From NCBI RefSeq assembly GCF_003704095.1, contig NW_020845264.1, forward strand, positions 620,001-684,000: DNA of 64,000 bases. The letters run 5' to 3'. The stretch is from Pocillopora damicornis (lineage: Eukaryota). This document shows positions 3,818 to 51,522 of this stretch, one piece after another. Under the pieces are notes generated by a model that saw nothing but the letters and a program-made list of their open reading frames with translations, searched no databases and was not told the DNA's origin. Position numbers and translations under genes: made by a program. Within the stretch, counting starts at the first letter, position 1. Every line of letters starts with the position of its first letter.

Positions 3818-4702
3818 ATGACAAGCACTGAGGACCTGTATCATTCATCAATGGTCACCAATTGTGTGCTCAACGCATCTTTATCCTACACCGCCATCGC
3901 GTTGAACATCATAACAATTTACGCGATGAGAAAAACATCGTCTCTGCCGAGGCCGCTGAGAACATTATTGCTGAGTCTTGCTGTCTCAGATCTGGGTGTC
4001 GGCATTTTTGTACAACCTTATTACGTTGTGCTTTTAGTTATAGAGCTGAAAGGCGCCGATCCTGTTGACAAATCAATGGATAATGCCATGTATGCCATGG
4101 CGGAAACATTTTCCATTGTTTCATTTCTCAGTGTTTTTGTCCTCAGCGTGGACAGATTCCTGGCTGTACATCTTCATCTCAGATATCAAGAACTTGTCAC
4201 TCAGAGACGCACTGTTTTGGCCGTGATATCAATCTGGATGCTTAGTGTATTTCTTGCAGTAACCGGCCATTTTTGGTTGCCTCTTTTCCTTCTAGATTTT
4301 TTTCCTGTAGTTTTAGGGTTCTGTTTTATTTGCACAGGATTAGTTTACTGCAGGATTTATTTCGCTGTACAACGCCACTTGAGGGAAATACAGTCCTTGC
4401 GAGTACGGCGAACCGAGCAGAATATCGGTGACATGGAGCATACTGCAAGGATGAGGAAAACTGCCATTAGCACATTTTACGTTTATCTTGTGTTTTTAGT
4501 CTGTTATTTGCCTGAATACTGCACTAATATGGTTGTTAGCCATGGCGAGCTTTCTGATTCTTTAAAAACCTTTAGGTTATACAGTTGGACTCTTGTGTGT
4601 GTGAATTCATCTTTAAACCCGGTTATTTATTGTTGGAGTATGAGACACATTCGACACACCATCATTAACATTCTCAGAAATACGCATCCGTGCAGAAAGT
4701 AA
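3818..4702 (+). CDS. Intronless class A (rhodopsin-like) GPCR, cnidarian adenosine/melanocortin-receptor-like expansion
   Basis: 294-aa ORF with seven hydrophobic segments, TM2 LAVSD, TM3 DRF (DRFLAVHLHLRYQELVT), TM6 CYLP, TM7 NSSLNPVIY. Confidence 0.93.
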   Translation: MTSTEDLYHSSMVTNCVLNASLSYTAIALNIITIYAMRKTSSLPRPLRTLLLSLAVSDLGVGIFVQPYYVVLLVIELKGADPVDKSMDNAMYAMAETFSIVSFLSVFVLSVDRFLAVHLHLRYQELVTQRRTVLAVISIWMLSVFLAVTGHFWLPLFLLDFFPVVLGFCFICTGLVYCRIYFAVQRHLREIQSLRVRRTEQNIGDMEHTARMRKTAISTFYVYLVFLVCYLPEYCTNMVVSHGELSDSLKTFRLYSWTLVCVNSSLNPVIYCWSMRHIRHTIINILRNTHPCRK

Positions 4703-8348: not shown

Positions 8349-9266
8349 ATGGAAGTCTCGCATATCGTCAATCTCGTCTTGAACGCCTTCACATCCTTCT
8401 CCGCCATTGTGTTCAACTCTTTTACAATTCACGCTTTGAGGAAAACTTCATCCTTACCGGCTCCTTTCAAAACACTTCTCCTGAGTCTTGCAGTCTCTGA
8501 TCTTATTGCTGGTTTGTTAGCTCAACCATTATACATTATACTAATTGTCATTTGGTCCAAGCAAAACACCGCAGACCATGCCTTGACATCCACCATACTG
8601 GTCATTGTATGTGCTCTATGCACTGCTTCACTTCTCAGCGTCATTGCTCTGAGTATGGACAGATTCCTGGCTGTTCATCTTCATCTCAGATATAAGGAAC
8701 TTGTAACCCACAAACGTGTCGTTGGTGCAGTGATCTTGATATGGATATTAAGTGTAGGTATTTCACTAGTTTGGATTTGGAAAGACATATACAAAGTCTT
8801 CTCTCTCGTCGCAATCGTTTGGAGTCTTTGTTTCGTTTACATGACAATTGTTAATTTGAGATTATCTCAAGCTATTAAACGCCACAGAAACCAGATCCAG
8901 GCAGACTTACGGGTACAGCAAGTAGCACAGGCAGCAAAACCAAGAAAATCTGCTGTTAGTGCACTGTATGTGTATCTTTTAGTTTTAGTTTGTTATCTGC
9001 CGATGTACTGTAGCATAATTTTATATGTGGTACGTAAAGGTGACCCAGACAGTTCACTTTTCTACTCACGGACTGTAATGTTTTTCAACTCGTCTCTGAA
9101 TCCTATTATTTACTGTTGGCGGATAAGACCAATTCGTCAAACCATCATGAGCATACTGGGAAACATATTCTCATGTAATTCAGCAGACGAATTAGTGCTT
9201 AAAAGATCTCTGCAAGAAAGAATATCAACAGCAGGTGGTATCCCCACCGTAGGGAAATCTACATGA
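8349..9266 (+). CDS. Intronless class A GPCR, tandem paralogue of 3818..4702
   Basis: 305-aa ORF with LAVSD, DRFLAVHLHLRYKELVT, CYLP, NSSLNPIIY; same strand as its neighbour. Confidence 0.93.
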   Translation: MEVSHIVNLVLNAFTSFSAIVFNSFTIHALRKTSSLPAPFKTLLLSLAVSDLIAGLLAQPLYIILIVIWSKQNTADHALTSTILVIVCALCTASLLSVIALSMDRFLAVHLHLRYKELVTHKRVVGAVILIWILSVGISLVWIWKDIYKVFSLVAIVWSLCFVYMTIVNLRLSQAIKRHRNQIQADLRVQQVAQAAKPRKSAVSALYVYLLVLVCYLPMYCSIILYVVRKGDPDSSLFYSRTVMFFNSSLNPIIYCWRIRPIRQTIMSILGNIFSCNSADELVLKRSLQERISTAGGIPTVGKST

Positions 9267-10786: not shown

Positions 10787-11782
10787 ATGGGAGTGCATAA
10801 AAGTACAATCAACCTGAAGGGTGCGAGCATCGTTAATCTTGTCTTGAACCTATTATCAGCCCCTATAGCCATCATTTTGAACAGTTTCACAATCTATGTC
10901 ATGAAAAAGGCTTCGTTGTTACCGAAGCCTTTAAAAGCATTGATGCTGAGTCTCGCTGTCTCTGATCTTGTAGTTGGTTTAATAGCTCAGCCATTATTTA
11001 TTGCATTGGAGATTTCAGGGTACTAGAGCCCATTTCTACCATTTCCATTCGTCAAGTTATTCAAGGGAATTTTGTATGTACTTTCTAACACTTCGTTCCT
11101 CGGTGTCATGGCTCTGATTGTGGACAGATTCCTGGCTGTTCAACTTCATCTCAGATATCAAGAGCTTGTGACGTCCAGGCGCGTCGCCGGAGTGGCAATT
11201 TTGCTATGGGTGTTAAATATTTTTATTTCAGCAGTTACTTTAATTGGATCCAAGTTTTACTCCTCCTAATTTGGAATATTTGTTTTATTTGCATAACAAT
11301 TATACGTTCCAAACTGTATTTCGCTTTACGACGCCATGTAAACCAAATTCAAGCTTTGCAAGCACAACGAGCGGCACCGAAATCGAATAGTGAATTAGAG
11401 AATGCAATGAAGCTGAGAAAATCTGCGGTGAGCGTACTCTATCTATATTTTGTATTCATACTTTGCTATTTACCAATATATTCTTCTCTTGCTGTCCGGA
11501 TAAATTTTGGACTACGTCGCTTCAGTGGCCCACCATTGAATAATTTTTAGTTTTTCTCTCAGACACTTATGTTATCCAGTTATTTACCGCTGGAGAATGA
11601 GAGATATTGGACATTCTATCATGGGCATACTGCGAAATATATTTGCATGTGATAAAAACGTTTTAAAATTGAGAGAGGTTGGAGAGGTTATGAATGCTTC
11701 AGTAAATAAAGTGTATACTTCGCTTGCAATAAATTTGTTCCTTCCTTATTCGGGGTGCGTTTCAAAAAATTTAGCAAAGTAA
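10787..11782 (+). pseudogene. Decayed third GPCR paralogue
   Basis: Same motifs (LAVSD, DRFLAVQLHLRYQELVT, CYLP, PVIYRWRMR) broken by an in-frame TAG at 11024-11026, a frameshift near 11240-11270, a stop at 11548-11550 and loss of NSSLN in TM7. Confidence 0.88.
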
Positions 11783-37300: not shown

Positions 37301-40049
37301 CAAAATACACATGCAACATTTAACCTTTAAAAGAACATATGTAGTAGTATGAAGCAACACATTTTGGGACTCAAGAAAAACATTTTTTCCTCATACAGTA
37401 CCTTGATACAGCCATCTAATCGATTGTTTGATTTCTGATTCATTCTATCTGCCTAAACAAGAAATAAAGCACAAAACAATAAATATAGCATGAAATCTAA
37501 TGTAAATCCACAAAAAATAAATTTAAGAGGAATAATTTTTTTTGCATTCTTCCTACTAATTTCCTCTCCTTAATGCAAAACAGAAGATTCAAAGGCTTCC
37601 TCATTAAATGTTTACACTTTGACTTAAGTACCTACATTCTTCTTTCATTCTTTATACATTTCTTAAGGTACTGACAAGGAGAATTTATTGAACAATCAGG
37701 TGCTTCTTATGTTGGTGATCATAATTATCATCCTTGTAATGATTAGCTATGATTCCACAATCGTCGATTATGTAATTTCTGTTTTGAGTTAAGTGTCATA
37801 AGGTCAATGAAATTAGAGAGAAGCTTAGTTATCCTCAGACACAGTCCATTAAGATCAAAGCTACAAGATTAAGGCAGTAAAATAATAAGAATTCTAACCC
37901 GAGAAAAGAGGTATGATTTTGCCTACATAATTTCTATTTGCATGTTCTCGGATTATATTTGTTATCATGGTTATTGCACGTGATTTAATTCTAAAATAGT
38001 ATTATCATGTATGCTCTATGTGTACAAGTGATTTCACAATAGCACATGTTATGTATAGTTTCTAATTGTTCTTAATAGTATGTTATGCTGCAAATTACCT
38101 TACAGTTTTTTACATTTTCAAGTACCATACCCCAAGAATAAAAGATAATCAATAAGATACAAAGATGAGTACTTGAAGTCAGTAAATCTCCACCTCCGAC
38201 CAGATATGTTTATACCTTGAGAACCTAAACCCACTACAATCCTCCTGACCTTAGTGTTTGATTCAGTCATGATACTGTTGGGAGAAAATCACCATCACTT
38301 TTCACTCTTAGGGTGAACCAGTTGGCCAGATGTTTTCACAGTAGGCGTTGGGACCATACAACTTCATAGGGTAGATAACAGAGCCCCTTGAGCAAAAAGT
38401 ACTAGTATCCAAAATGGATGGTCAAGATTTTTCAGATCCCAAAATTTCATTAACAAACCATTTTCAGTAGTTTTTCCCTGTCCTTCTGAATTTTCAACTG
38501 TTCCCTGGCTTGTTTTCTGGCATGTTGTTCTTTTTCCTTTTCTTCTTTCTTTGTTTGTTTTTCAAGTTTTTTTACTTGTTTCTTAAGCTATAAATTGAAA
38601 GTGAATAGTAATGCAAAGAATTATAAATATTTTAAAAACTGTTACAGTATAATTGCAAAATAATTGCAAAAATAATTCAGGATTTTGACAAACTGAGATG
38701 TTGAAAATGGAGATTGGAGCTTAAATATTATCTCCCAGTTTAGTGTCTACACTCCTTATAACTGTTCCCGACATAACAAATGACATAGTGATACTTACAT
38801 GAGCTTCATTTCTCTCTCTTGTAATTTTGTGTGGTGACCCTTTCTTTTTCTTAACAGGGATTTGAGAATCATCCTGAGAGTCAAAGTTGCTTCCTAGAAA
38901 CTGAGAATCCCTACTTTTATAATTATCTGTGCATGAGTTTGAATGTGATTTAGAAGACAGGGTGCCCCTATTATCTGTGTGTAAAGATGGTAGAACACAT
39001 GGAAGATCATCACTATCAGAGCTGTAATCATCAGATTGAGAGCAATCTACAAATATTTCTCCACTTCTCTTGAAGTACTCCTCTGCAGCTTTCCTGTTCT
39101 CCTTTGGTGGCATTTGATTGCTTGAGTTTGTAGTTAGCGTTTTAGCAGCAGGTGAATGTAAAGTGTAAACATCCTGAATATCCTCTTGCTCATTATCATC
39201 AGAGAAGGAAAGATCAATTATCGAACTTCTGCATTTGACCATTGTTTTCCTTCCCGTTGCCTTTCCTTTTACATGGTAAGAGGTANNNNNNNNNNNNNNN
39301 NNNNNNNNNNNNNNNNNNNNNNNNNNNNNNNNNNNNNNNNNNNNNNNNNNNNNNNNNNNNNNNNNNNNNNNNNNNNNNNNNNNNNTTACTGGATCGTTGG
39401 TTTAGTGCATTTGTCAAATATCTTTTATGTAATAGTCTAGTGTGTTATTTATGTAGGATATATACATTTAATAAACTGTCTGGTCCCAAAACAAGCTTCT
39501 GTCTGTCGTGGTGTTTAGTTGGAGACTCATTAAACAGTTCATGGAATAATATACAGTATTTTATGAATTTCTTTCTTTCAAATTTGACGCTTGGACATTT
39601 GGCTATGTCTTCAGTTGCTCGCACAAAATGTAAAGGAAATGACAAAGAAAGATTTGTAAACAGAGTAACGTTTTAAAAAAAAATCGAATTTGTGAAAGTA
39701 GGCACAGGTACAGTCCTGATCAGCAGTTAAAATAGAAAAAACTCATTATCAAATCATACCTAAAAGAAAATTCCTACCAATGGACTAAATTAAACGATTT
39801 TTATGTTACAAACGATGGTTCAAACTTTTAAGATCGGTTTCCGGTTTGTTTTCCTTTTAATACCATACTGACCTGACCATCCAGTATCCTGTTAACAGTT
39901 TTCACTGGACTTCTGGTGATTTCCAAATCTTTAGCTATATCTATTGGATCAACATCTGGATAGACTGACAATACATTTTCGATCATAGTATGTGCTACAG
40001 TCTTTCTACTAAAAGGAGAATAAAGCAGATCGTCCTCTTCATCCTCCAT
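34373..40049 (-). CDS. EME1: Crossover junction endonuclease EME1 (MUS81 partner), multi-exon, spans an N-gap
   Basis: [64 protein letters not shown] and C-terminal [23 protein letters not shown] match EME1; the link to exon 40049-39873 across the gap is inferred. Confidence 0.88.
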
Positions 40050-41992
40050 TATAAATGGCGCGCTTTTTTGAAGAACCGCTGTTTTCATAAAGTGTGGGCG
40101 TCGATGAGCTTAAGGTAGGGAGGGGTGGGGGAGGAATAAACCTAGAGTGTTCTTATTTTGTTCCAAGCTTTAGGCGGATTACGCTGGGGGAAATGCGAGA
40201 GAAACTAACTGCAATCCTAGAAATTCATATCAGACATATTCTGTATCCAGTTTTAAGTGCATATGTCTTATTTTACAGGGCATTGTTTCATCCAAAGTGT
40301 GACCATTAATCATTCATTTGTGCTATTGGTCAGGACTGGCAATATTTGCAACTCCCAGACTCCCTTGCCAAGCAGTGAAGACTAATCAGTTTTTAAACTT
40401 AGTCAATTTTTACGTCTAACGGCTCCATTTCTTTGGCCGTTTTACGGCTACCGATTAACTCTATTGATATCCTCTTATAACTGGAAACAGTCATATGGCT
40501 TCCCACCTCTTCTTTATCGAAAACCGGCTGGTTAATAAGATTCGTGAAGTTGGTTTAAAAAAAAAAAATGGAGCTCAAATAAATCGAGTGTATTTTTTTA
40601 TGGACAACATGGTCAAAAAGTTGCCCAGTGAAGGAAAAACATTAACAGATGGATAAACTGACTGAACAGCTTTTCACTCAGATTGTACCGCTTAGTGATA
40701 GAAGGCTAATCTCAACTCGGGTGAATGACTAAGTCGAGCTTGGTTCTACGTTATCAATAAGGCTTTGATTTCATAAATTACTAAGCTTCCGTTAGGAAGT
40801 ATGTATTTAATCCAGAGAAGAAAAGATTTATCACTAAACTCACATATCGATCTAACTAAATGCCTCTTCCTTTAAAACTTCACCCAGTCGCAAAAAGTCT
40901 TCCGTTGTTTAGAATAAACTGAATCAGTCATTTTTGTCGCTATTTCACAACGAGAAGTTGACTCAAATTAAATAGCAAAGATTTAAGCGAAGATCTGAAG
41001 TTATAAAATTCTAGGCTTAGTGCTAAAGATAGCTTCCTCGGATATGACGAACACATAAATACTTTCTTACGTTTGAGAATCAACTGAATTTATTGAGGCA
41101 CACTTACAGTGCTCGAGGCAAAACCAAAATCTAAGAAATGAATAAACTTGTAAGTATTAAAATGCCCCGTGGTGTTATCATGGGAGGTAGAAATTATTTT
41201 ATTTCGGAAATGATAAACAGAAGTTATCAAGCGGCCTTGAAACGGGTAATGACACTGATTTCTTCACAAAAGGCAAATTAAAACGTGGCTTTCTACTGCA
41301 AACAGCATGAAGTTAAAAAAATAAGAACAGCGTTGTTTTGTATGGTTTAAACGGAGGGATTTGCACTGTGATTGGAGAAAAGGCTGTCGAGTTTGGAAAT
41401 ATACTTTTCAAAGAAAGGAAGCGAATATGTGCTCATTAGAAACCCAACTTGAATATGATTACCAAAGCTCTTCACAATATCCGCCATTGAAGACTTCTTT
41501 TTCATTCAAGAGGAGTTTATAAACCTTGAAAATTAATGTAAATGATAAAAATGGGCTGGGAAGAGTTTTTATTGAATAAATTCTTTAAAATTTTTTCATT
41601 TAACGAAAATGTTAGCTATTTAGAGAAATTGGAACTATTATGTTTGAAAAAGATGGAAGCAATAGAAATTATGATGCGGATGTTTGGGCCGGTAAATAAA
41701 ATGTGGCCTATGAACAAAGGAAATCTCTCTTTTCTTTTACTTCCACTGATTAATATCGGGCACAAAGAAATAATATTGAATGAAAAGGCGGAGTAGTAAT
41801 TGTCGATAGGAATAAATAAACATACTTGTTAATGAGGTTTCACCGGATGCCCTTTAAACTGCTAATTGTAACCAGTGGGAGAACGTTTGTTCTGCGTCAG
41901 CCGAGAAGAACATTTTATTTAATGATGATAAGTGAGACTGTAATTAAAAATATAATTGAAGTGTTGACAGTGAAAATGCTTGGAGGGAATTG

Positions 41993-42114
41993 TATATTAA
42001 GAGCAGTGTTTTCAGCCGAGGCTCACTTTCAGTCGGTGCCATCAACACGCCACATTTTGTAAATCTGCTTCCGAGACGATTTTTCATTGACAAGGAACAG
42101 GAGTGAACGTTCAG
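41993..42114 (+). promoter_or_regulatory. Candidate core promoter and non-coding first exon of the neuropeptide gene
   Basis: TATATTAA 41993-42000, Inr-like TCAGTC 42029-42034, an ATG-free stretch ending in a strong donor CAG|GTAAGA at 42114; the coding exon begins at an acceptor 4 nt before its ATG, so an upstream exon is expected. Confidence 0.5.
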
Positions 42115-43342
42115 GTAAGAAGATTGTGTGTGATAACATTTCATTTACAATGATGTTTGAGTATTTATTTTTTGAGTGTTGTTTTTTCGCATGGGCATGC
42201 TCTTGCCTTTCATTATCTGACTGCCGAGCCAAGTTTTTAAGATGATTCAAAAATGCTTACCATGAGCTCAAAGATGATGTTAGATGAAAACGCTTTCACC
42301 ATTTTTTTGTGTCATGTGTGCTCTATTTTGTGAAGCTGGTCTGTTCAATTGGATAACACCCAACTAAAACTTGGTTTGTACCACGATTTTTTTTCCATTT
42401 TTTATCATTTCTAAACTACATAAGATAAATTCACGCTTCGCGTAAGAACAAAACAAAAAAGAAAAAATAAAGCAAATAGACTTTGAGAGCCATGTGCTAT
42501 GCTTAGGAAGAAAAAGTAAAGTTCCCTTTTTGCGGACCTTGTGAAATTACAACTAATTTTTCATCAGATATTTTAAAATCTTCGCTGCTTTCTTGTGTAA
42601 TTATTTGGTCGTTTGCGAGTACTAACGATATATTATAACAATAGTTTAGAGCACATTTACAGAATTTGTCACGACAAAGTCGCATTGTTCCTGGAAATCC
42701 TGTGATTTTCTTCTTGATTGCCATCTCTTGGCTAAATGGGTACCACCCAAACCAGATATTGAGTATTAATCGTTGTGAAAGTTCCTATTAACGATAAGAT
42801 AGTTTCAAGCTTTTGTGTTTGCGTCTTTCCCTTTTACTCTTTGTGTCAATTAGGTGCAAAATTCCTTCTTTTTTCATGTCACTTATTTGACTTTATCATT
42901 CCTCTTAAAAGCGCTAAAATTTGGTGATTACATCTTTATTCTCGGGATTTAGTCTTGCTCAAAGAATTCTCCTGCTTTTGTCTGGTTTTATACTGAAGAC
43001 AAAATAATGAGTTTCCCACAATATGGAACACTTACTCTGAGAAAACCTTAAAAACGGTCATTAAAGATGAAGAAATATATACAAAAAAACGTAGGAACTT
43101 AAGATTAAGTATCCTTAAAAGTAAAGAAATTGTTAGTGCTTTATTTTATCTTAATATCCAGCTGCCTGAGTAAATCTATCGCGCACTTGCCTCCAAGGTC
43201 TTAATTAGCGACTCCTGATATTGCACAGAAAAATTTGGTGCGAGCTTGATAGGCTAGTGAAACTTGAAACAATGGCCATTGTAACAATTAATTATAAAAA
43301 GACGAAGAGACTTAATGTTTGTATGTATTTCTTTACAGGTCA

Positions 43343-45371
43343 ATGATGTTTTTAAGACTTGCTGTCTTATTTTGTGTGGTTTGCTTAGCAAGCAGTGAAA
43401 AAGAGAAAAACTCTGAGGATCCGCCCGGCTTACTTCAAGCATTAAACTCTAAATATTTTGGTCACATCAGGGGCAAAAGAACGGTTAGTATTTGATCGCT
43501 CTGTTAACATCTCACATTACAGCCTGTAACCACGCACTGATATAATGATACAATACGCCTCGTGATTTTCATCCTATGAATTAGATCAAAATCGAAATTT
43601 TGAAGAAAAGGAGTTCCTTTTTATTGAAATCTTATGTTGTACTCAGATAAAAGGTCGGTGAAAGAGACCTCTATACCCAGTCATGGAAAAAAAATCAGTT
43701 CTCAGAGTAAAACAAAAGTCTTTTGTGAATTTTTCCGACTGTAGAGAGGATTTCAAAGAATAGTGGCTAATGGGGGCGGCTCTACCATGGAAAATATACT
43801 GAATATCTATTTTTTTTAAACTGTGCATGGTTTCCTTGTGTCTCTGAGCACTAATTTGCTTACATTCAAATACCGACAGGTACTATTTTAGTTAATCAGC
43901 TTCTAGTGTAAATGAAAAAACTCTCAATTAATTTGACATTTCACTGATCAAAACGAAAGGTACTTTTTACTTTTTTTTGTTACAGATTATTCAATTAACT
44001 CGAAGTTCTCTTTATTTTAAAGGGCAAGGATGATAATCCACCCTTGGAACAGGCACTTAATAATGCTTATTTTGGACATATTCGTGGAAAAAGAACGGTA
44101 ATGCCTGGCTTTTACTATGACAGTCCAGTGACTGCTTGTTTAAAGCAATCTCTTATTCGCTTAGTTTTGGCAGTGTAGAGCAACATATACACTATACAGC
44201 CGCTTGAGAAATGTGCGTTTTTTTGTCCAACTAGAAATGTTTTTGGATGAGCTTTAGGGATTTTACACCTGAACTGCAAGTCCTTAATGTCATTTGTTAT
44301 TATTTCAGCAATCAGATGATTATCCGCCACTAGAGGAAGCTCTCAATTCAGCATATTTTGGACATATTAGAGGAAAGAGAACGGTAATTGTTTCTTTGTA
44401 GTTAAGAACATGATAACTAACGGTGAATGGGATAATAAGTTCCCTGAAGAACAACCAATTCAGCTGAACCGAACTTAACCCTGTCAAAGAGAGGAAACAA
44501 TAACCAAAGATTATAACTGCAGTTGCCTCATTTAAGAAGGAAACATTCGTCGATGACTGTTGCCTGTTTTGACCTTCATGGTTCACAGTACAATCTGGAT
44601 CATAAGAGTTGAAAATCTGCGAAAATTTTCTCGTTTCCTCTTTGCAGTTCGCCTGAAGCATGGGAAAACCATGATAAGAGTTTCGAAATTTCTATATTTG
44701 ATTTGCTGAACCAGCCACTTAGGTGCAGGATAAGGCATAACAAATGTAGTGCCCTGCCGGAAATCTTTTATCCAGCTTAATAACTGAGCTGATAGTCAAG
44801 CAGGTGAAATGACTCCCAGTTCACTTGATGGACGTGCCAACTTCTCCTAACAAGCATTGTATGAATCCTGTAATAATCAGTTAAGAGAATCTGCATTTGT
44901 TTTGCTTTACAGCTTCAAGGTTAGGGTTATAATCCTGCGCTTCGTAAAGCACTCAATAGGCAGTTTTTTGGCCGCTTTCGGGGAAAACGGACGGTAAGAT
45001 GAAAAGTGAACAGGCTGGCATTTCGCGTCGCATAAATGAACTTAAATGAGAGTGGTATGCTCCTTTAAACTTTGGCCACCGCTGCATTGTGTGTTTGTTT
45101 TGCAGGGAGGGTGGGGATCAAACAAAGATTTATTGGAGGCCTTAAACAATGCTTACATGGGACACATCCGTGGGAAACGACAACAGGTACTAAATTGTGC
45201 TGACTTTGAAACGAGTAGGTGTAGTAGCTAATTAAACACATTTGATTTGTTTTTTCGTTCAATGTAGATATAATAATCTTGTAATAGTTTATTTAATAGT
45301 TTACTGTATGATAATCTTGTTTCTTTTCTCTTTTGAATTTTTTGTAGGAAACAATGGATAAGTCAGTTTAA
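43343..45371 (+). CDS. HIRamide-type neuropeptide preprohormone; coding exons 43343-43483, 44023-44097, 44309-44383, (44913 or 44925)-44993, 45106-45186, 45348-45371
   Basis: Signal peptide MMFLRLAVLFCVVCLASS, then five homologous units ending in G-K-R: ...ALNSKYFGHIR-GKR, ...ALNNAYFGHIR-GKR, ...ALNSAYFGHIR-GKR, ...ALNRQFFGRFR-GKR, ...ALNNAYMGHIR-GKR; all introns phase 0 GT-AG; AATAAA at 45543 and 45582. Confidence 0.9.
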
Positions 45372-45705
45372 TGACCACCTCTTGAAACCATGCCATGAAA
45401 TTGCAATCGAAGACACTGCCAGTGACCATTAGAAAACATGATATGTACTACTACCATGAAAACTTGCTGAATGCCAAAAAAGTATATTTATTTCCAGAAG
45501 ATGTGTTTCATTACAGATTTTTAATGAATAGGCAAAGTGTCAAATAAAGTCGGAACATTAGATTATGAAATAAGTGAAATGAATAAAAGTTGAGCAAAGA
45601 GACTACAACATCTTGTGCTCTCTTAAAAGTGTTTTATCCTTAATGATTAAGTTAAAAAAGACAGGTTAGCGATAAATAAATTTCATTTTAAAGGTATGCA
45701 TTGTA

Positions 45706-46427: not shown

Positions 46428-47948
46428 TCACAGTTCGGGTTCTGAGCCTGCACTCATGATACCGCATAATGCAAACTTTCCGCCTTTTACAATCTTAAAA
46501 CTTAGTTTGTGGCTTCCTGGTTTTACTAGACGCGCTACATTAACGACTTGTGTAAATCCATATGTGGAATACGCATCAGCATAGACGCTGTTGTTACTTT
46601 TGTCCAATGAAACTTCTGCTTTTCCTCCATAACCGTTTGTTCGGAAGGCTATAAGAACATCTCTAGTTTGATTATCCCCAGGAATGCCATTAAAAGGTAA
46701 ATCAATTCGTAGTTGTAAAATAGAGTCTACTTTCTCTGCTTCCCATCCACCAAAACCATCAGTCCGCACAGGCCCGAGTTTATTTTCCCATGAACTGCTT
46801 CTATAAACACCGATAGGTAGATTTTGAATTCGTTTAAATCCCGTATTTTTTATTTCTGTGACAGAGAGGGATGGATTAAAGAAAGTGCTACTTACGTCGG
46901 GTGTGAGGCGAGTGTAACAGAGAGGGCCTGGAACAGATCCCCCTTTGCCCGCAAAATAAACAGGTCTCGGTAAGTTGACAAATCGTAAATAAAATAGCCC
47001 TCGATTGGTATTTGTTATGGTGTTTGATAAAGCTTTACGAACGCTATTGATTATCATTAAAGCGATTTGTGCATGGGTAATATTACCACTATGAACTCCA
47101 TCCGCAGTGAAAAACGCTGGAATTTGTCTCTCTCGATCATCTGAACATAACGACTCGCGCATACTGAAACTTGTAATGCCATAATGCCAGGCTAGCATAG
47201 TCTGCCCGTGATTTTCCAGGTTGTCACACATGGGAATTTTATTATTTCCGGGAGTAAAATTGACATATGCCACTGCCGAGGAAGATTCTTCCCTAAGTAT
47301 CCGCCTCGTAAGTTTTTCAAGAGATGACGCTCTTGGCTTTTGAGAATCCTTAAATTGAAGATAATCGTTTATTGAAAGCTCAAGGAGGATAATGTCTGGG
47401 CTATCTTTAGGTCTCATCAAAGTTTTGTAACAATAATAAAAAAAGTCGCTAGCAGTTCCTCCAACGGCGAGATTCTGCAATTTGATGCGAGATCCAGTAA
47501 AAGGTTGTATGGCCTTCTGCCACCAATCGACAAACACACGATAATAAATTCCTTTTAGATTAGAGAAATCGTTGATTAATCCACCTCCAGCCGATGTTGA
47601 TCCACCTATTACAATAAGGCCAATATCTTGACCGAGTAGAACTTTTTCCATAAGATTTTTAAGACGATATTCTGTTGTTCGTCGTTCAACAATCTGGTTG
47701 TTATACATTTCGGCCGTAAGGAACAAATCCTCCAAAGACTTCAACTTATCCTTGAAGTACCAAACTTCGAACGGATTTCTTTGAATCGAACGCTTGAGAT
47801 AGTAGATTTTGTTCAGCTTCACTGCAGGTGGTTTGTTTCTTACTTCAGGCTGCTTGTTATGTAAACTGGAATGACAGTCTTTTCCTATTTGTGTTGATGT
47901 TGCACTGTACATAACTTGAAGGATTAAACAGATCATTTTATGGAACAT
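46428..47948 (-). CDS. SGNH/GDSL-hydrolase-like secreted protein, paralogue 1 (intronless CDS)
   Basis: Blocks GGSTSAG, AVGGT, ELSIND, DGVH; likely start MFHKMICLILQ at 47948; C-terminal beta-rich domain. Confidence 0.85.
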   Translation of the reverse strand: MFHKMICLILQVMYSATSTQIGKDCHSSLHNKQPEVRNKPPAVKLNKIYYLKRSIQRNPFEVWYFKDKLKSLEDLFLTAEMYNNQIVERRTTEYRLKNLMEKVLLGQDIGLIVIGGSTSAGGGLINDFSNLKGIYYRVFVDWWQKAIQPFTGSRIKLQNLAVGGTASDFFYYCYKTLMRPKDSPDIILLELSINDYLQFKDSQKPRASSLEKLTRRILREESSSAVAYVNFTPGNNKIPMCDNLENHGQTMLAWHYGITSFSMRESLCSDDRERQIPAFFTADGVHSGNITHAQIALMIINSVRKALSNTITNTNRGLFYLRFVNLPRPVYFAGKGGSVPGPLCYTRLTPDVSSTFFNPSLSVTEIKNTGFKRIQNLPIGVYRSSSWENKLGPVRTDGFGGWEAEKVDSILQLRIDLPFNGIPGDNQTRDVLIAFRTNGYGGKAEVSLDKSNNSVYADAYSTYGFTQVVNVARLVKPGSHKLSFKIVKGGKFALCGIMSAGSEPEL

Positions 47949-48108
47949 TTTAGATTTTTGTCTCAGGTTTACGTGGAATATAGTTATTTTATATGTCAAG
48001 TTAAGTTTGAAAAGCTTTCAGCTTAGCTTAGTTAACCTGTCTTTAGTGTGTGCCAAAATTACAACCTGCAAAAAGTTTCAGCTATTATCGTAATTTGATG
48101 ATGGGTCC

Positions 48109-48198
48109 CTTGACGATGACTTCAACTGCAGTAAACGGGTGAAGATCACTTGACGATGACTTCAACTGCAGTAGACGGGTGAAGATCACTTGTCGATG
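48109..48198. repeat. 40-bp tandem repeat, about 2.25 copies
   Basis: CTTGACGATGACTTCAACTGCAGTA(A/G)ACGGGTGAAGATCA at 48109 and 48149, partial copy at 48189. Confidence 0.9.
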
Positions 48199-48669
48199 TT
48201 ACAGGTGTTTATCACACTAAGCGATCTTCAGTCATTGTTAATCGCCACAGATATTTTCACACTCAGGTTAATGACATTGCTATCATATCAAGATATCCTC
48301 CAGAGAAATATATTCTGGGCAATTTCAACTAAATTTAGTCTCGCTAGGCTAAGTCAGTCGCACCCGCAGCCCACGGCTAACCTCATAGCCCACTGCCTTA
48401 AGCCTCCGTTGTGTTCGCGTGCCAAATAAAGGTCAGCGTCACCTCACCAAACTGCGGAACTGATATTATCAAAGTACCATAAGAACTCACCATCATTTGC
48501 ATTGCATTGTAGGCGACGATGACCTTTGTTGAACAAGGTAGCAGGGCAATCGACTACGGACTGCGAGCTCTTAGGCTTTTTTAAAAGGCGGCAGGTCTGC
48601 TTTTAGCAAGACCCCGTTTATTAGCCCAATTTCCATATGATCTATCAAAATAATCATCTCAGGAATGTG

Positions 48670-50397
48670 TCATTTGTAAGTCGGTCCAGCCATAACACCC
48701 GATAAAATGAACACCCCTGGGGTTTCTGTTCTGATACTAATCACATGCCGCCCGGGCATTACGTGACTGGCAATAGTGTATAGTTTAGTGTGGCCAAACA
48801 GTGAATAAGTGGTGACTAAAATTCCTCTTTCTTCATGTTCATTTAACCACACTTTTGCCTGTCCACCGTTGCCGTGCGTTCGAACAGCTATTGCCACCTT
48901 TCTTGTCTGAGTTGCAGCGTCCATAATGCACTGCCTTGAGAGAGACGTGATTGGTATAAGTATTTCTAATTCCAGCATTGAGTTTTTAGACTTGGACTTC
49001 CACCCGCCATAAGCATCTGTTCTGTGAGTCTGCATTTCACCAAATTGCTTAACTTCACATGTGGCATTAGGTAATACTACATTGTTGATAGCTATTTTCT
49101 GAAACTCCTCAAATCCAAAATTTCCGATTGCTTTTACTTGCAGACTTTGATGTGCTGTGATGTTTCTTGTACAGTCGGGTGTTATTTGAGTGAAACACCT
49201 GGGGCGTTCCCGCAGATTTTGACGGTAACTCATGAACAAGGTTTCTGGAAGATTTCTAAATTTTAGAGGACAGTCTGGTAATATTATCCTATCGCCAATT
49301 GATGGAAGTGACATTTTTTCAATAGTTACTTTCACTTTTTTGGTTGTGATTAAGCTTTCGAGCACATTAAGAATTAATTGCCGCACATGGGTTATCATCA
49401 TAAATGCCATTTGAGCATGGCCTATAATGCTGATGTGATTGCCGTCAGTTGCAAACATTTTGGAAAGCTTTTTCCGTTTTCCTGCAAAACCTGAACATAG
49501 CAACTTTCTCAAGCTAAACGTTGTTATTCCATAGTGTTTAGCGAGAAGTGTCTGGCCGTGGTTCTCCAAATTGTCACATTTTGGACGTCTAAGATCGCCT
49601 TGAACAAAGTTGACGAACATCACGGCGGGAGAACTTCCTTCGCTTAAAACTTCCCTAGTAAGTTGTTCCAGTGGCAGAGCCATTGGAAACATGGAGTCTT
49701 TAAACTGAACATAGTCATTCACGGTGAAGTCAAGAAACACAAGATCCATGTCAGTTTTAGGGTTCAAAAAAACACTGTAACAAAAAGCATAAAAATTGCT
49801 GCTGGTTCCACCAATAGCGAGATTGTTAAGTTTCAAGTCAGACCCTGTGAGTGGCTGCACTGTTTTGCGCCACCAGTCACTTAAAACTCGGTAATAGAGG
49901 CCTCGTAGGTCTTCACCATCATTTGTCAGACCGGCACCTGCAGAAATTGACCCACCCATGATAGCGATGTTAATGTTCTCACCCTCCAGTGATCGTAGGA
50001 TTACATCTTTGAGGCGATTTGTGGTGCCTTTTCGTTGGAATACGCCGCTGTCCCAAGGTTTGGAAACTATGAGCAAGTCTGCTTTGGACTTAAATCGGTT
50101 TTTAAAAAACCATGTTTCAAACGGATCTCTTTCAACAGCGAATTTTAGAAGTCTGAGCTTCACTGGAATTAAGTCCTCGTTCAACCTTGATCCGATAGAA
50201 TCATCACGAGAATCAGTTTTGTGTTCCTTTCGTGAAATACTGGCCGCATTTCCCATGTAAAACCAGTGTGCAGTTTCCCTTTTGGTAATAAACACAGCCA
50301 ACAGTAGCACAACGAAATGAGATCTCCAATCAAATCGCGACATCAAAGCTACTACACCAAATATTATTAGAACTGAGGCGACCATTAGATATACCAT
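48670..50397 (-). CDS. SGNH/GDSL-hydrolase-like protein, paralogue 2, N-terminal hydrophobic anchor(s)
   Basis: 575-aa ORF with GGSISAG, AIGGT, DFTVND, DGNH; two hydrophobic stretches in the first 40 aa. Confidence 0.88.
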   Translation of the reverse strand: MVYLMVASVLIIFGVVALMSRFDWRSHFVVLLLAVFITKRETAHWFYMGNAASISRKEHKTDSRDDSIGSRLNEDLIPVKLRLLKFAVERDPFETWFFKNRFKSKADLLIVSKPWDSGVFQRKGTTNRLKDVILRSLEGENINIAIMGGSISAGAGLTNDGEDLRGLYYRVLSDWWRKTVQPLTGSDLKLNNLAIGGTSSNFYAFCYSVFLNPKTDMDLVFLDFTVNDYVQFKDSMFPMALPLEQLTREVLSEGSSPAVMFVNFVQGDLRRPKCDNLENHGQTLLAKHYGITTFSLRKLLCSGFAGKRKKLSKMFATDGNHISIIGHAQMAFMMITHVRQLILNVLESLITTKKVKVTIEKMSLPSIGDRIILPDCPLKFRNLPETLFMSYRQNLRERPRCFTQITPDCTRNITAHQSLQVKAIGNFGFEEFQKIAINNVVLPNATCEVKQFGEMQTHRTDAYGGWKSKSKNSMLELEILIPITSLSRQCIMDAATQTRKVAIAVRTHGNGGQAKVWLNEHEERGILVTTYSLFGHTKLYTIASHVMPGRHVISIRTETPGVFILSGVMAGPTYK

Positions 50398-51522
50398 TTA
50401 AGTCTGACACCCGAACAATTATTTGCAGTGTTACTTCATGGATTGTGTGATCGCTGCGGGTCAGTTTTAACTGAAATTATATGGTTCCTGTCAAATAGAG
50501 AAAACTGTCACCTGCTAAGTACCTAACTGGATTATGAGACACTTTGCAGTTACCCGTTAAATCTATTTTCAACACAGCCGTCATGAAGACGGCCTCTGGA
50601 GATCGCCTCTAAGACTAATCGTAATCATATAAAACTAATAGGCGCTCAATCTTTGAAAAGTAGAAAGAGCTCTAGTGGAAGATATTTCTATAAATTTCAA
50701 ACAGCGAGCGTCAAAGAAACTTGGATTCTCAAAAAGGTTTTTCCACAGGAAGAAAAGATCTGTGTAACCCATAAATCTTGAACTTTTTTCCCCAGATTCT
50801 CGGTGTTTCCTTTAAGCCAATTATTCCATGTAGGCCAACCCTTTTCGAGAATTGCAAAACGAAATCCAGTCAGATTAACCGTATGAAAAGTTTATCGTAT
50901 ATGAAAAAATGAAAATTTGAGTGCAGCTGTGGCGAGGGCTGGCTCCTCGTCTATTTTTTACCCCAGATCCCCACGGTATTTTAGATATATGTACCTCTAA
51001 GTTCAGTGGTCTTTGAAAGTGTATATTTAAAACGCCTCCACTCACGAGCTGTCAGTCGATGTGCATCTTCATCTTTGATCATGTTCTTGACATCGTAAGG
51101 CTTAAGAACTAAAGTAAATTTTCATACGTAAGTTTATTTGCTGCAGATTAAGTGGCGATCTCTTTAAGAGCGGTCCAAGGCGTTTCGCATCGGAAAAAAG
51201 TTGTACCTCAAACTTTGCCCATTAAGCTATCTTTTGTAGTAAGTAAATAAAACCACAATGGTTTCTGGATATACGTTAAAAATTTTTTTCAGGGCTCTTA
51301 CAGCTCTAGGCATGTTGACAAAGGCACCTGTCTAATGGAAGTAGGCTTCAACACCACTGAAAAGGCAGGCGGCGGGTGATTGGAAACGTTGGAGAACAAA
51401 AACGAAAAATTAGTAGAATGTAAATATTTAAAACTTTAACGGGTACCTTTGCTGTGCATAAAACTCCCTTAGTAATAGGTTAGAAGTCCTTCATACCATT
51501 GTAGCGAGAGTTAAAAATTTAA

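Follow-up and report, generated by a model that had tools for sequence, protein, structure and literature searches.

The peptide precursor gene and its exons

By its sequence, the gene found on the forward strand at 43.4-45.2 kb of the window (the whole stretch of 64,000 nucleotides of Pocillopora damicornis DNA that was analysed) is the Pocillopora (F)HIRamide precursor (preprohormone), built of in-frame exons with one peptide per exon; a six-frame scan of the window found here five peptide repeats in a row that end in RGKR. The window was compared with one run of DNA (X4) and three of RNA (X15, X17 and X19), which are four out of 24 runs, come from four studies and include none marked as a possible source. 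The features of the locus are:

41963..42114, + strand: exon 1, non-coding, with donor CAG/GTAAGA; known from an X19 contig (41963-42116) with a loose end matching exon 2, its start being the 5' end of one RNA contig and not a mapped transcription start
43339..43483, + strand: exon 2, with the ATG at 43343, a signal-peptide-like N-terminus and the first GHIR-GKR; joint 43483>44023 in 3/3 RNA runs
44023..44097, + strand: exon 3, 75 nt, second GHIR peptide; joints in 3/3 RNA runs, tblastn
44309..44383, + strand: exon 4, 75 nt, third GHIR peptide; joints in 3/3 RNA runs
44384..45105, + strand: stretch of 722 nt spliced out of the main mRNA, containing exon 5; skip joint and low-depth unspliced contigs
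44885..44912, + strand: conserved upstream flank of exon 5 with the ancestral CAG acceptor; alignment to the coral loci L003 and L004 (z 6.0 and 3.8 against shuffles)
44913..44993, + strand: exon 5, 81 nt, GRFR-amide peptide exon, skipped in RNA contigs; sequence, RNA contigs and orthologues
44922..44927, + strand: TGG>TAG stop (44922-44924), forming TAGGGT and an in-frame AG before 44925; sequence, runs and alignment
44946, + strand: site polymorphic for A and G; the window, X15 and X4 encode Lys, whereas X17, X19 and the P. meandrina model keep the ancestral Glu
44994..45035, + strand: donor of exon 5 and the conserved sequence that follows it, GCTGG...TTCGCGTC; alignment to L003 and L004 (z 4.1 and 4.4)
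45106..45186, + strand: exon 6, 81 nt, last GHIR peptide; joints in 3/3 RNA runs
45348..45608, + strand: last exon, encoding ETMDKSV before a stop at 45369-45371, with a 3' UTR that reaches 45608 or further; joint 45186>45348 in 3/3 RNA runs, same ending in the Logan contig protein P0003

A signal-like N-terminus, called by eye inspection and from the annotation of Koch, together with four GHIR-GKR exons identifies a HIRamide gene, and the exons are colinear, one by one, with the Stylophora RefSeq model P0011 and with L003 and L004 (tblastn, blastn). Models from P. damicornis and P. meandrina match exon 2 at 100% identity, and Stylophora pistillata does so at 96%; no Pfam family was found for any of the three proteins searched. 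The (F)HIRamides are family 6 of Koch & Grimmelikhuijzen 2020, whose supplement 6 (PMC7523074) holds a P. damicornis precursor with four peptides; exons 2, 3, 4, 6 and 7 correspond to this hexacorallian preprohormone, with the same signal-like N-terminus and GHIR-G-KR repeats. In Nematostella, HIRamides have been detected by mass spectrometry and in neurons (Hayakawa 2019, PMC6756747), and their receptors are R21 and R29, most copies being active on both (Thiel 2024, PMC11087051). Unlike the present analysis, these papers, in their accessible parts, deal with protein sequences only and mention no exon structure, fifth peptide exon, GRFR end or stop. Since the internal exons are multiples of three, break between codons and carry one peptide each, any one of them can be dropped without a frameshift.

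Some transcripts depart from this layout. One X15 contig (depth 3.1), in which 42237-42373 is spliced to exon 2, may represent an alternative first exon or a partly spliced intermediate, and a 1173-nt X19 contig matches the 3' UTR over 100 bases (45443-45542) before passing into unlike sequence, as another 3' end or a haplotype insertion would. In P0003 the full four-peptide precursor is fused to an unrelated N-terminus (residues 1-157), which had no tblastn match in the window and no Pfam match; it may reflect chimeric assembly, read-through or trans-splicing, and this N-terminus may resemble the SUMO ligase NSE2.

The stop codon of exon 5 and its ancestry

The layout of exon 5 proved exactly as a previous sequence-only reading of this DNA had described it: from the acceptor TTTACAG (CAG at 44910-44912) the frame reads LQG, stop, GYNPALRKALNRQFFGRFRGKRT, with the TAG at 44922-44924 and the donor ACG/GTAAGA, and a start at 44925 gives a 69-nt exon (44925-44993) in frame. 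A third AG within the exon (AAG, start 44920) gives 74 nt, out of frame. Being one of five RGKR-ending repeats and aligning without gaps to the same exon of other corals, exon 5 is not a chance reading frame. Its peptide is indeed basic, the net charge of the last 20 residues being +5 as opposed to 0, -1, -3 and 0 in the other four exons, and it ends GRFR-G-KR where the other four copies end GHIR-GKR. Ile>Phe in this end is common to merulinid-type corals (GHFR), whereas His>Arg is shared only with Stylophora. The product thus lacks the C-terminal HIR-amide of a HIRamide, the orthologues ending GHFR, GHIR, GPHLR or GRFR. With Antho-RFamide and other GRFamides it shares the letters GRF near the C-terminus, but it does not qualify as one of them, as Phe does not stand directly before the amide-donor Gly (GRF-R-G-KR) and the exon is orthologous to a HIRamide repeat; with Arg preceding the Gly used for amidation, an Arg-amide end is predicted for the product.

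The base-call or assembly error that had been considered for the stop is refuted by the runs, as no other letter was found at 44922-44924 in the 4/4 runs covering those positions. At 44923 itself the assembled contigs likewise gave no variant letter in 4/4 runs, and A in 3/3 RNA runs. The window does have one private letter nearby, at 45111, which is different in 4/4 runs, but the TAG is carried by the X4 DNA contig, which spans 43888-45700 with only two letters other than the window's, and by RNA contigs of three more studies, so that the probability of an error is negligible. A second haplotype, present in X17 and X19, also reads TAG; in X17 it shows nine substitutions and a 6-nt insertion in 786 nt. 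Its G at 44946 encodes Glu against the Lys of the window, Glu being kept in all six orthologues compared. This G is an allele and not the outcome of editing, because it agrees with the P. meandrina model and is accompanied by many other types of change. With the Lys allele, the exon 5 peptide gains an internal Arg-Lys dibasic site (44943-44948), present in X15 and X4 and absent from X17 and X19.

The P. meandrina model P0001 reads ...RT-VI-GYN..., where VI comes from reading on past the exon 4 donor (44384-44389), with GYN beginning at 44925. We infer that P. meandrina carries the TAG too and that the model shows a predictor bridging the stop, which is apparently genus-wide in Pocillopora, being common to all Pocillopora sequences seen. 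The proposal of a nonsense allele holds as to origin, but the stop is common to both haplotypes seen and buffered by in-frame skipping.

It could also be considered that the stop is recoded, either by A-to-I editing of UAG to a Trp codon or by ribosomal read-through. UAG is one A-to-I edit away from UGG and is a favoured ADAR context; nevertheless, the RNA contigs of 3/3 runs keep the A at 44923 and have no inclusion joint, and the fold around exon 5 is no better than shuffles (z -0.31), making recoding highly improbable.

Orthologues were sought in a metagenome scan, in which 164 pattern matches reduced to five loci; three of these (L003, L004 and L005) reach exon 5, and L001 and L002 end before it. 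Scans of prokaryote genomes and viral contigs returned one chance match each (L006 and L007), unrelated on reading. In L004 and L005 the exon 5 orthologue is LEGWGYNPALREALNKQYSGHFRGKRT, and in L003 the same with Phe for Tyr; the other exons of L004 match the Orbicella precursor of the Koch supplement. The orthologue begins LEGWG in all three loci, in the protein P0041 and in Stylophora P0011, and L003 and L004 align without gaps with TGG over the TAG of the window. P0041, the sole and weak candidate from a search for short proteins with exon 5, has Trp and a GHIR end; in the 4/4 Porites models of one cluster (cluster 5) the exon has Trp and ends GPHLR; and in the Stylophora RefSeq model Trp occurs together with the FFGRFR end of the window. 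Corallimorphs have exon 5 in two transcript assemblies (Koch supplement 6). The comparison with related corals thus yielded Trp at that position throughout (L003-L005, P0041, Stylophora P0011 and 4/4 Porites models), and TGG is the ancestral codon, since the orthologous exon begins LEGWG in other corals. On this point the sequence-only reading was right about the codon, although the proper comparison is with this orthologue and not with the sister exon GGWGSNKD that it had aligned. The idea that the divergent GRFR end arrived together with the stop is wrong: Stylophora has GRFR with the Trp intact, so that the end is older. Judging from these alignments, the ancestral exon had the 81-nt form, Ile>Phe goes far back in robust corals, Pocillopora has His>Arg in common with Stylophora, and the changes of exon 5 that appear as Pocillopora's own are only the stop and Glu>Gln before it.

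Exon 5 is absent from the other Stylophora model (P0004), from a Desmophyllum model and from 6/6 scleractinian entries of the Koch supplement, several of these being partial or ab initio. As inclusion in Stylophora mRNA rests on one of two gene models, skipping may predate the stop. The sequence-only reading had named an exon that is never included and not conserved as the case against itself; the inclusion joint is absent from the RNA contigs, yet the exon is conserved in other corals. As for other exons of the family, isoform X2 of Porites lutea (P0012) lacks exon 6, the last peptide exon, a sign of exon skipping, and the Porites evermanni model P0013 has two identical copies of one repeat, a sign of conversion or duplication.

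Exon 5 in RNA

The main transcript leaves exon 5 out. The main contig joins exon 4 to exon 6 in 3/3 RNA runs from three studies (joint 44383>45106, depth 632, 368 and 593), and the same direct join, whose short side in the contigs is 28 letters, is present in P0003 and in the RefSeq P. damicornis isoform X1 of Koch supplement 6; the GenBank protein pdam_00000574 lacks exon 5 as well. No joint at 44913, 44925 or 44993 is among the five joints listed for the assembled contigs of the three RNA runs. The idea of a skipped, decaying exon is supported by these data, and exon 5 behaves as a skipped cassette: 81 nt, in frame, coding in relatives, disabled here and missing from the main RNA form.

The skipped 722 nt are nonetheless covered end to end at low depth (7.8; 10.3; 8.4 and 4.5), which amounts to about 1-3% of the spliced form; by comparison, the last intron is at depth 0 and coverage of introns 1-2 is patchy (0-3). 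When all the spare depth is put on exon 5 and a floor of 2 per word is assumed, mean depth bounds inclusion at 2-3% in X19, 12-15% in X15 and 25-30% in X17; in X19 this means about 2% of steady-state RNA for the 81-nt form and at most about 3% for the form starting at 44925. Moreover, the X19 contig with exon 5 is shallower than the contig upstream, the opposite of what inclusion would produce. The RNA evidence consists of assembled contigs, which drop rare forms, and for this reason rescue of the exon and its action as a poison or detained exon both keep some standing.

Under the second of these, inclusion through 44913 would send the message to nonsense-mediated decay (NMD), or the splice sites would hold the intron in, tuning the HIRamide output. 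Both splice sites are intact and strong and the flanks are conserved; the skipped stretch is covered at depth 4.5-10 in 3/3 RNA runs, in contrast to the other introns; and decay would itself hide the transcripts that include the exon. A premature stop usually triggers NMD when it lies more than 50-55 nt before the last junction, and inclusion via 44913 places the stop 150 nt upstream of it, well within reach of this rule. Against this, the flank conservation predates the stop, as it is common to corals with an intact exon 5; the stop itself is not conserved across lineages, being seen only in Pocillopora; the inclusion joint was not seen (the X19 bound for the 81-nt form being about 2%) and regulation is without evidence. 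A Stylophora transcript assembly also runs exon 4 into the same intron, and slow splicing may be old. We consider a poison or decoy exon unlikely. Read-through of the exon 4 donor (44384-44401) gives VIVSL and then a stop, and the Stylophora transcript in the Koch supplement ends nearly alike, which suggests that intron retention may be common to both genera.

Rescue was proposed on the grounds that the TAG might serve as a new acceptor in some cells, so that the mRNA there takes up the 69-nt exon and still yields a basic GRFR-amide peptide. The 69 nt are in frame, the P. meandrina model P0001 begins the exon exactly at 44925, and the Glu haplotype has no fixed Pocillopora change in the 23 codons after the TAG, as opposed to 2/4 codons before 44925. 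But the 44925 joint was found in 0/3 RNA runs, and is bounded in X19 as above; P0001 uses an odd donor six bases into the intron and has a wrong C-terminus, as a predictor bridging the stop would produce; a clean join of exon 4 to GYN occurs in no protein match (sets of 9, 1 and 25, 15 of these read among 19 new sequences); and, the stop aside, a single change would fall in the three codons upstream by chance about 3 times in 26. The TAG acceptor is in addition the weakest scored, with 6/12 pyrimidines and three T, compared with 8-10 pyrimidines and 8-9 T in the true acceptors. Lying behind the CAG and AAG, the AG derived from the stop is, by these scores, more likely a decoy than a working acceptor. 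Rare use of this site is conceivable, but the rescued exon is without RNA support and we hold it to be quite unlikely.

Skipping of exon 5 does not stem from missing splice sites, since the old acceptor and the donor are as good as the others of the gene; among the five donors of coding exons, this one pairs best with U1 (-8.2 kcal/mol). The stop does, on the other hand, create TAGGGT at 44922-44927, ten bases into the exon, which is absent at that place in L003 and L004. UAGGGU is a named hnRNP A1 site (in the consulted part of PMC3683929), and by motif match it is here a putative silencer of hnRNP A1 type. Any change of Trp-Gly to amber tends to make a UAGGGU-type silencer motif; a literature search for repression of the hnRNP A1 type in cnidarians turned up no paper.

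Three other causes were dropped. The change improves a cryptic donor at 44919 (AAG/GTTAGG) from 5 to 6 matches of 9, but its U1 pairing hardly moved (-5.9 to -6.1 kcal/mol) and 12/175 regional GT sites are as strong. A 7-nt microexon or recursive site at 44919 has no RNA support in the contigs. RNA structure fared no better, the three-sequence consensus fold having 41 pairs with no compensatory change and 0/6 folds beating shuffles (z -0.97 to 1.40); a helix of 4+3 bp that pairs the exon 5 donor with the conserved element downstream recurs in 3/3 sequences, but is uninformative because the sequence is invariant.

Constraint, origin of the skipping and known parallels

Exon 5 is flanked on each side by 50 bases that show conservation with L003 and L004 (z 3.8, 6.0, 4.4 and 4.1; 300 shuffles, 4/4 tests), while the flanks of the other exons reach z 2.3 at most in 12 tests, which omit the upstream flanks of exons 2 and 3 and include one row, L003 exon 6, that is out of register. 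At synonymous sites exon 5 diverges significantly little from L004 (0.16 vs 0.58, p 0.003); the reduction is not significant against L003 (0.33 vs 0.54, p 0.18) or between L003 and L004 (p 1). Conserved alternative exons of mammals have conserved flanks and low silent rates, according to the part of PMC1543662 consulted. The conserved flanks therefore suggest that exon 5 is an old regulated cassette exon.

In comparison with Stylophora, exon 5 has 4/27 residue differences and the other peptide exons 2/47, 2/25, 4/25 and 2/27, without excess of fixed changes in exon 5, whose four differences are the stop, the Gln before it, the polymorphic Lys and Stylophora's own Ser. Over the 23 codons after the stop there is no fixed Pocillopora amino-acid change, as against about 7 expected had the exon been neutral since the Stylophora split; for 0 or 1 changes seen, P is 0.0001-0.004. 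The neutral yardstick is rough, being the read-through of intron 2 in P0005 (with an exon 2 of Stylophora type), which matches the window in 10/22 codons, with equal branches assumed. Such a shortfall argues for selection on the peptide during much of the Pocillopora branch, of which a neutral spell would cover no more than about 35-70%, according to which changes are included; the literature yielded no usable divergence dates by which to express this in years. Between the haplotypes, one missense change in 81 nt stands beside 8 differences in 641 flanking intron bases (n=1). The scant decay of the peptide and the intact splice sites would fit a young stop and also continuing selection or use, and it is the latter that keeps rescue alive.

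Taken together, exon 5 is an old HIRamide peptide exon which acquired a real stop in Pocillopora and is missing from the main mRNA, and it is probably a recently silenced cassette exon. We propose that it was an optional cassette before the stop, and that the G>A change would favour skipping by making UAGGGU, a repressor motif of hnRNP A1 in mammals, along with a competing AG, thereby pushing an optional exon to near-complete skipping. Residual transcripts through the old acceptor would be removed by nonsense-mediated decay, and the intact splice sites of exon 5 may slow intron removal and so leave the 1-3% of unspliced RNA. The stop would be young, the peptide having hardly decayed, and one peptide would have been lost at no cost to the other four. 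Pocillopora has likely lost a peptide still encoded by related corals and kept the remaining four, which survive because skipping of exon 5 keeps the frame.

It can also be argued that exon 5 was already almost always skipped in the pocilloporid ancestor, the stop being a passenger without splicing effect; this has the same end state as a recently silenced cassette and differs in cause only. One of the two Stylophora models (P0004) skips exon 5, and neither the Desmophyllum model nor any of the six scleractinian precursors of the Koch supplement has it. The protein-level constraint in Stylophora and for at least part of the Pocillopora branch speaks against it, as it needs real inclusion somewhere, and the RefSeq Stylophora and Porites lutea models include exon 5; such a passenger is very unlikely. 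Rather unlikely, in our view, is a repurposed exon, in which G>A made a switch by which a subset of neurons would splice at the stop to obtain the GRFR-amide, or send the message to decay or detention and so tune the four HIRamides. The switch would leave 23 untouched codons, intact splice sites and selective intron retention.

The proposed silencing of a cassette by its own stop has a parallel in DMD exons 31 and 39, where nonsense changes create hnRNP A1 silencers (hnRNP A1/A2) that lead to in-frame skipping (PMC4344520, as far as consulted). In both cases one substitution yields UAG plus a silencer-like motif and an in-frame skip saves the protein; those alleles, however, come from patients and had their binding tested, while in the coral all Pocillopora sequences seen carry the stop, skipping is near-complete and the silencer is putative. 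The Hydra GRFamide preprohormone-C gene (Koch 2021; consulted part of PMC8638164) has about one peptide per exon as well, with splicing that varies the content and one exon that holds a stop. It belongs to another peptide family, and its stop ends a short terminal isoform, unlike the derived stop of Pocillopora in an internal skipped exon. The gene and the kind of event are thus already known and this instance is apparently unreported: no description of exon 5 or its stop was found in the open literature, which leaves the supplements of PMC11087051 and PMC6756747 and subscription journals outside its scope; the main text of PMC7523074 contains neither 'GRFR' nor 'RFRamide' nor 'alternative splicing', and PMC11087051 has no instance of 'splic'.

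The case is a modest but instructive one of modular gene loss and opens no new kind of system. It illustrates, in a main reef-building genus, that a neuropeptide gene with one peptide per exon can shed a single ligand with the rest unharmed. Stylophora with Trp and Pocillopora with the stop make a natural pair in which nonsense-associated exon skipping could be tested at a great distance from mammals. Several corals encode a fifth, divergent peptide that is missing from the published coral HIRamide precursors, and its GRFR, GHFR and GPHLR ends are ready candidates for receptor assays.

Elsewhere in the window, non-coding stretches upstream of and within the gene (41405-41495, 41713-41967 and 42896-42938) are 73-86% identical to L001, L003 or L004 and are candidate promoter or enhancer elements. 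Segments of 46447-54581 match L004 7157-8956 on both strands at 65-80%, as a small paralogous gene or domain cluster syntenic with the other coral. There is a scaffold gap of about 100 N at 39287-39386, out of 352 N in the whole window, and three diverged copies (66-74%) of a 148-nt stretch at 4114-4261, 8621-8768 and 11086-11233 are likely exons of tandem paralogues.
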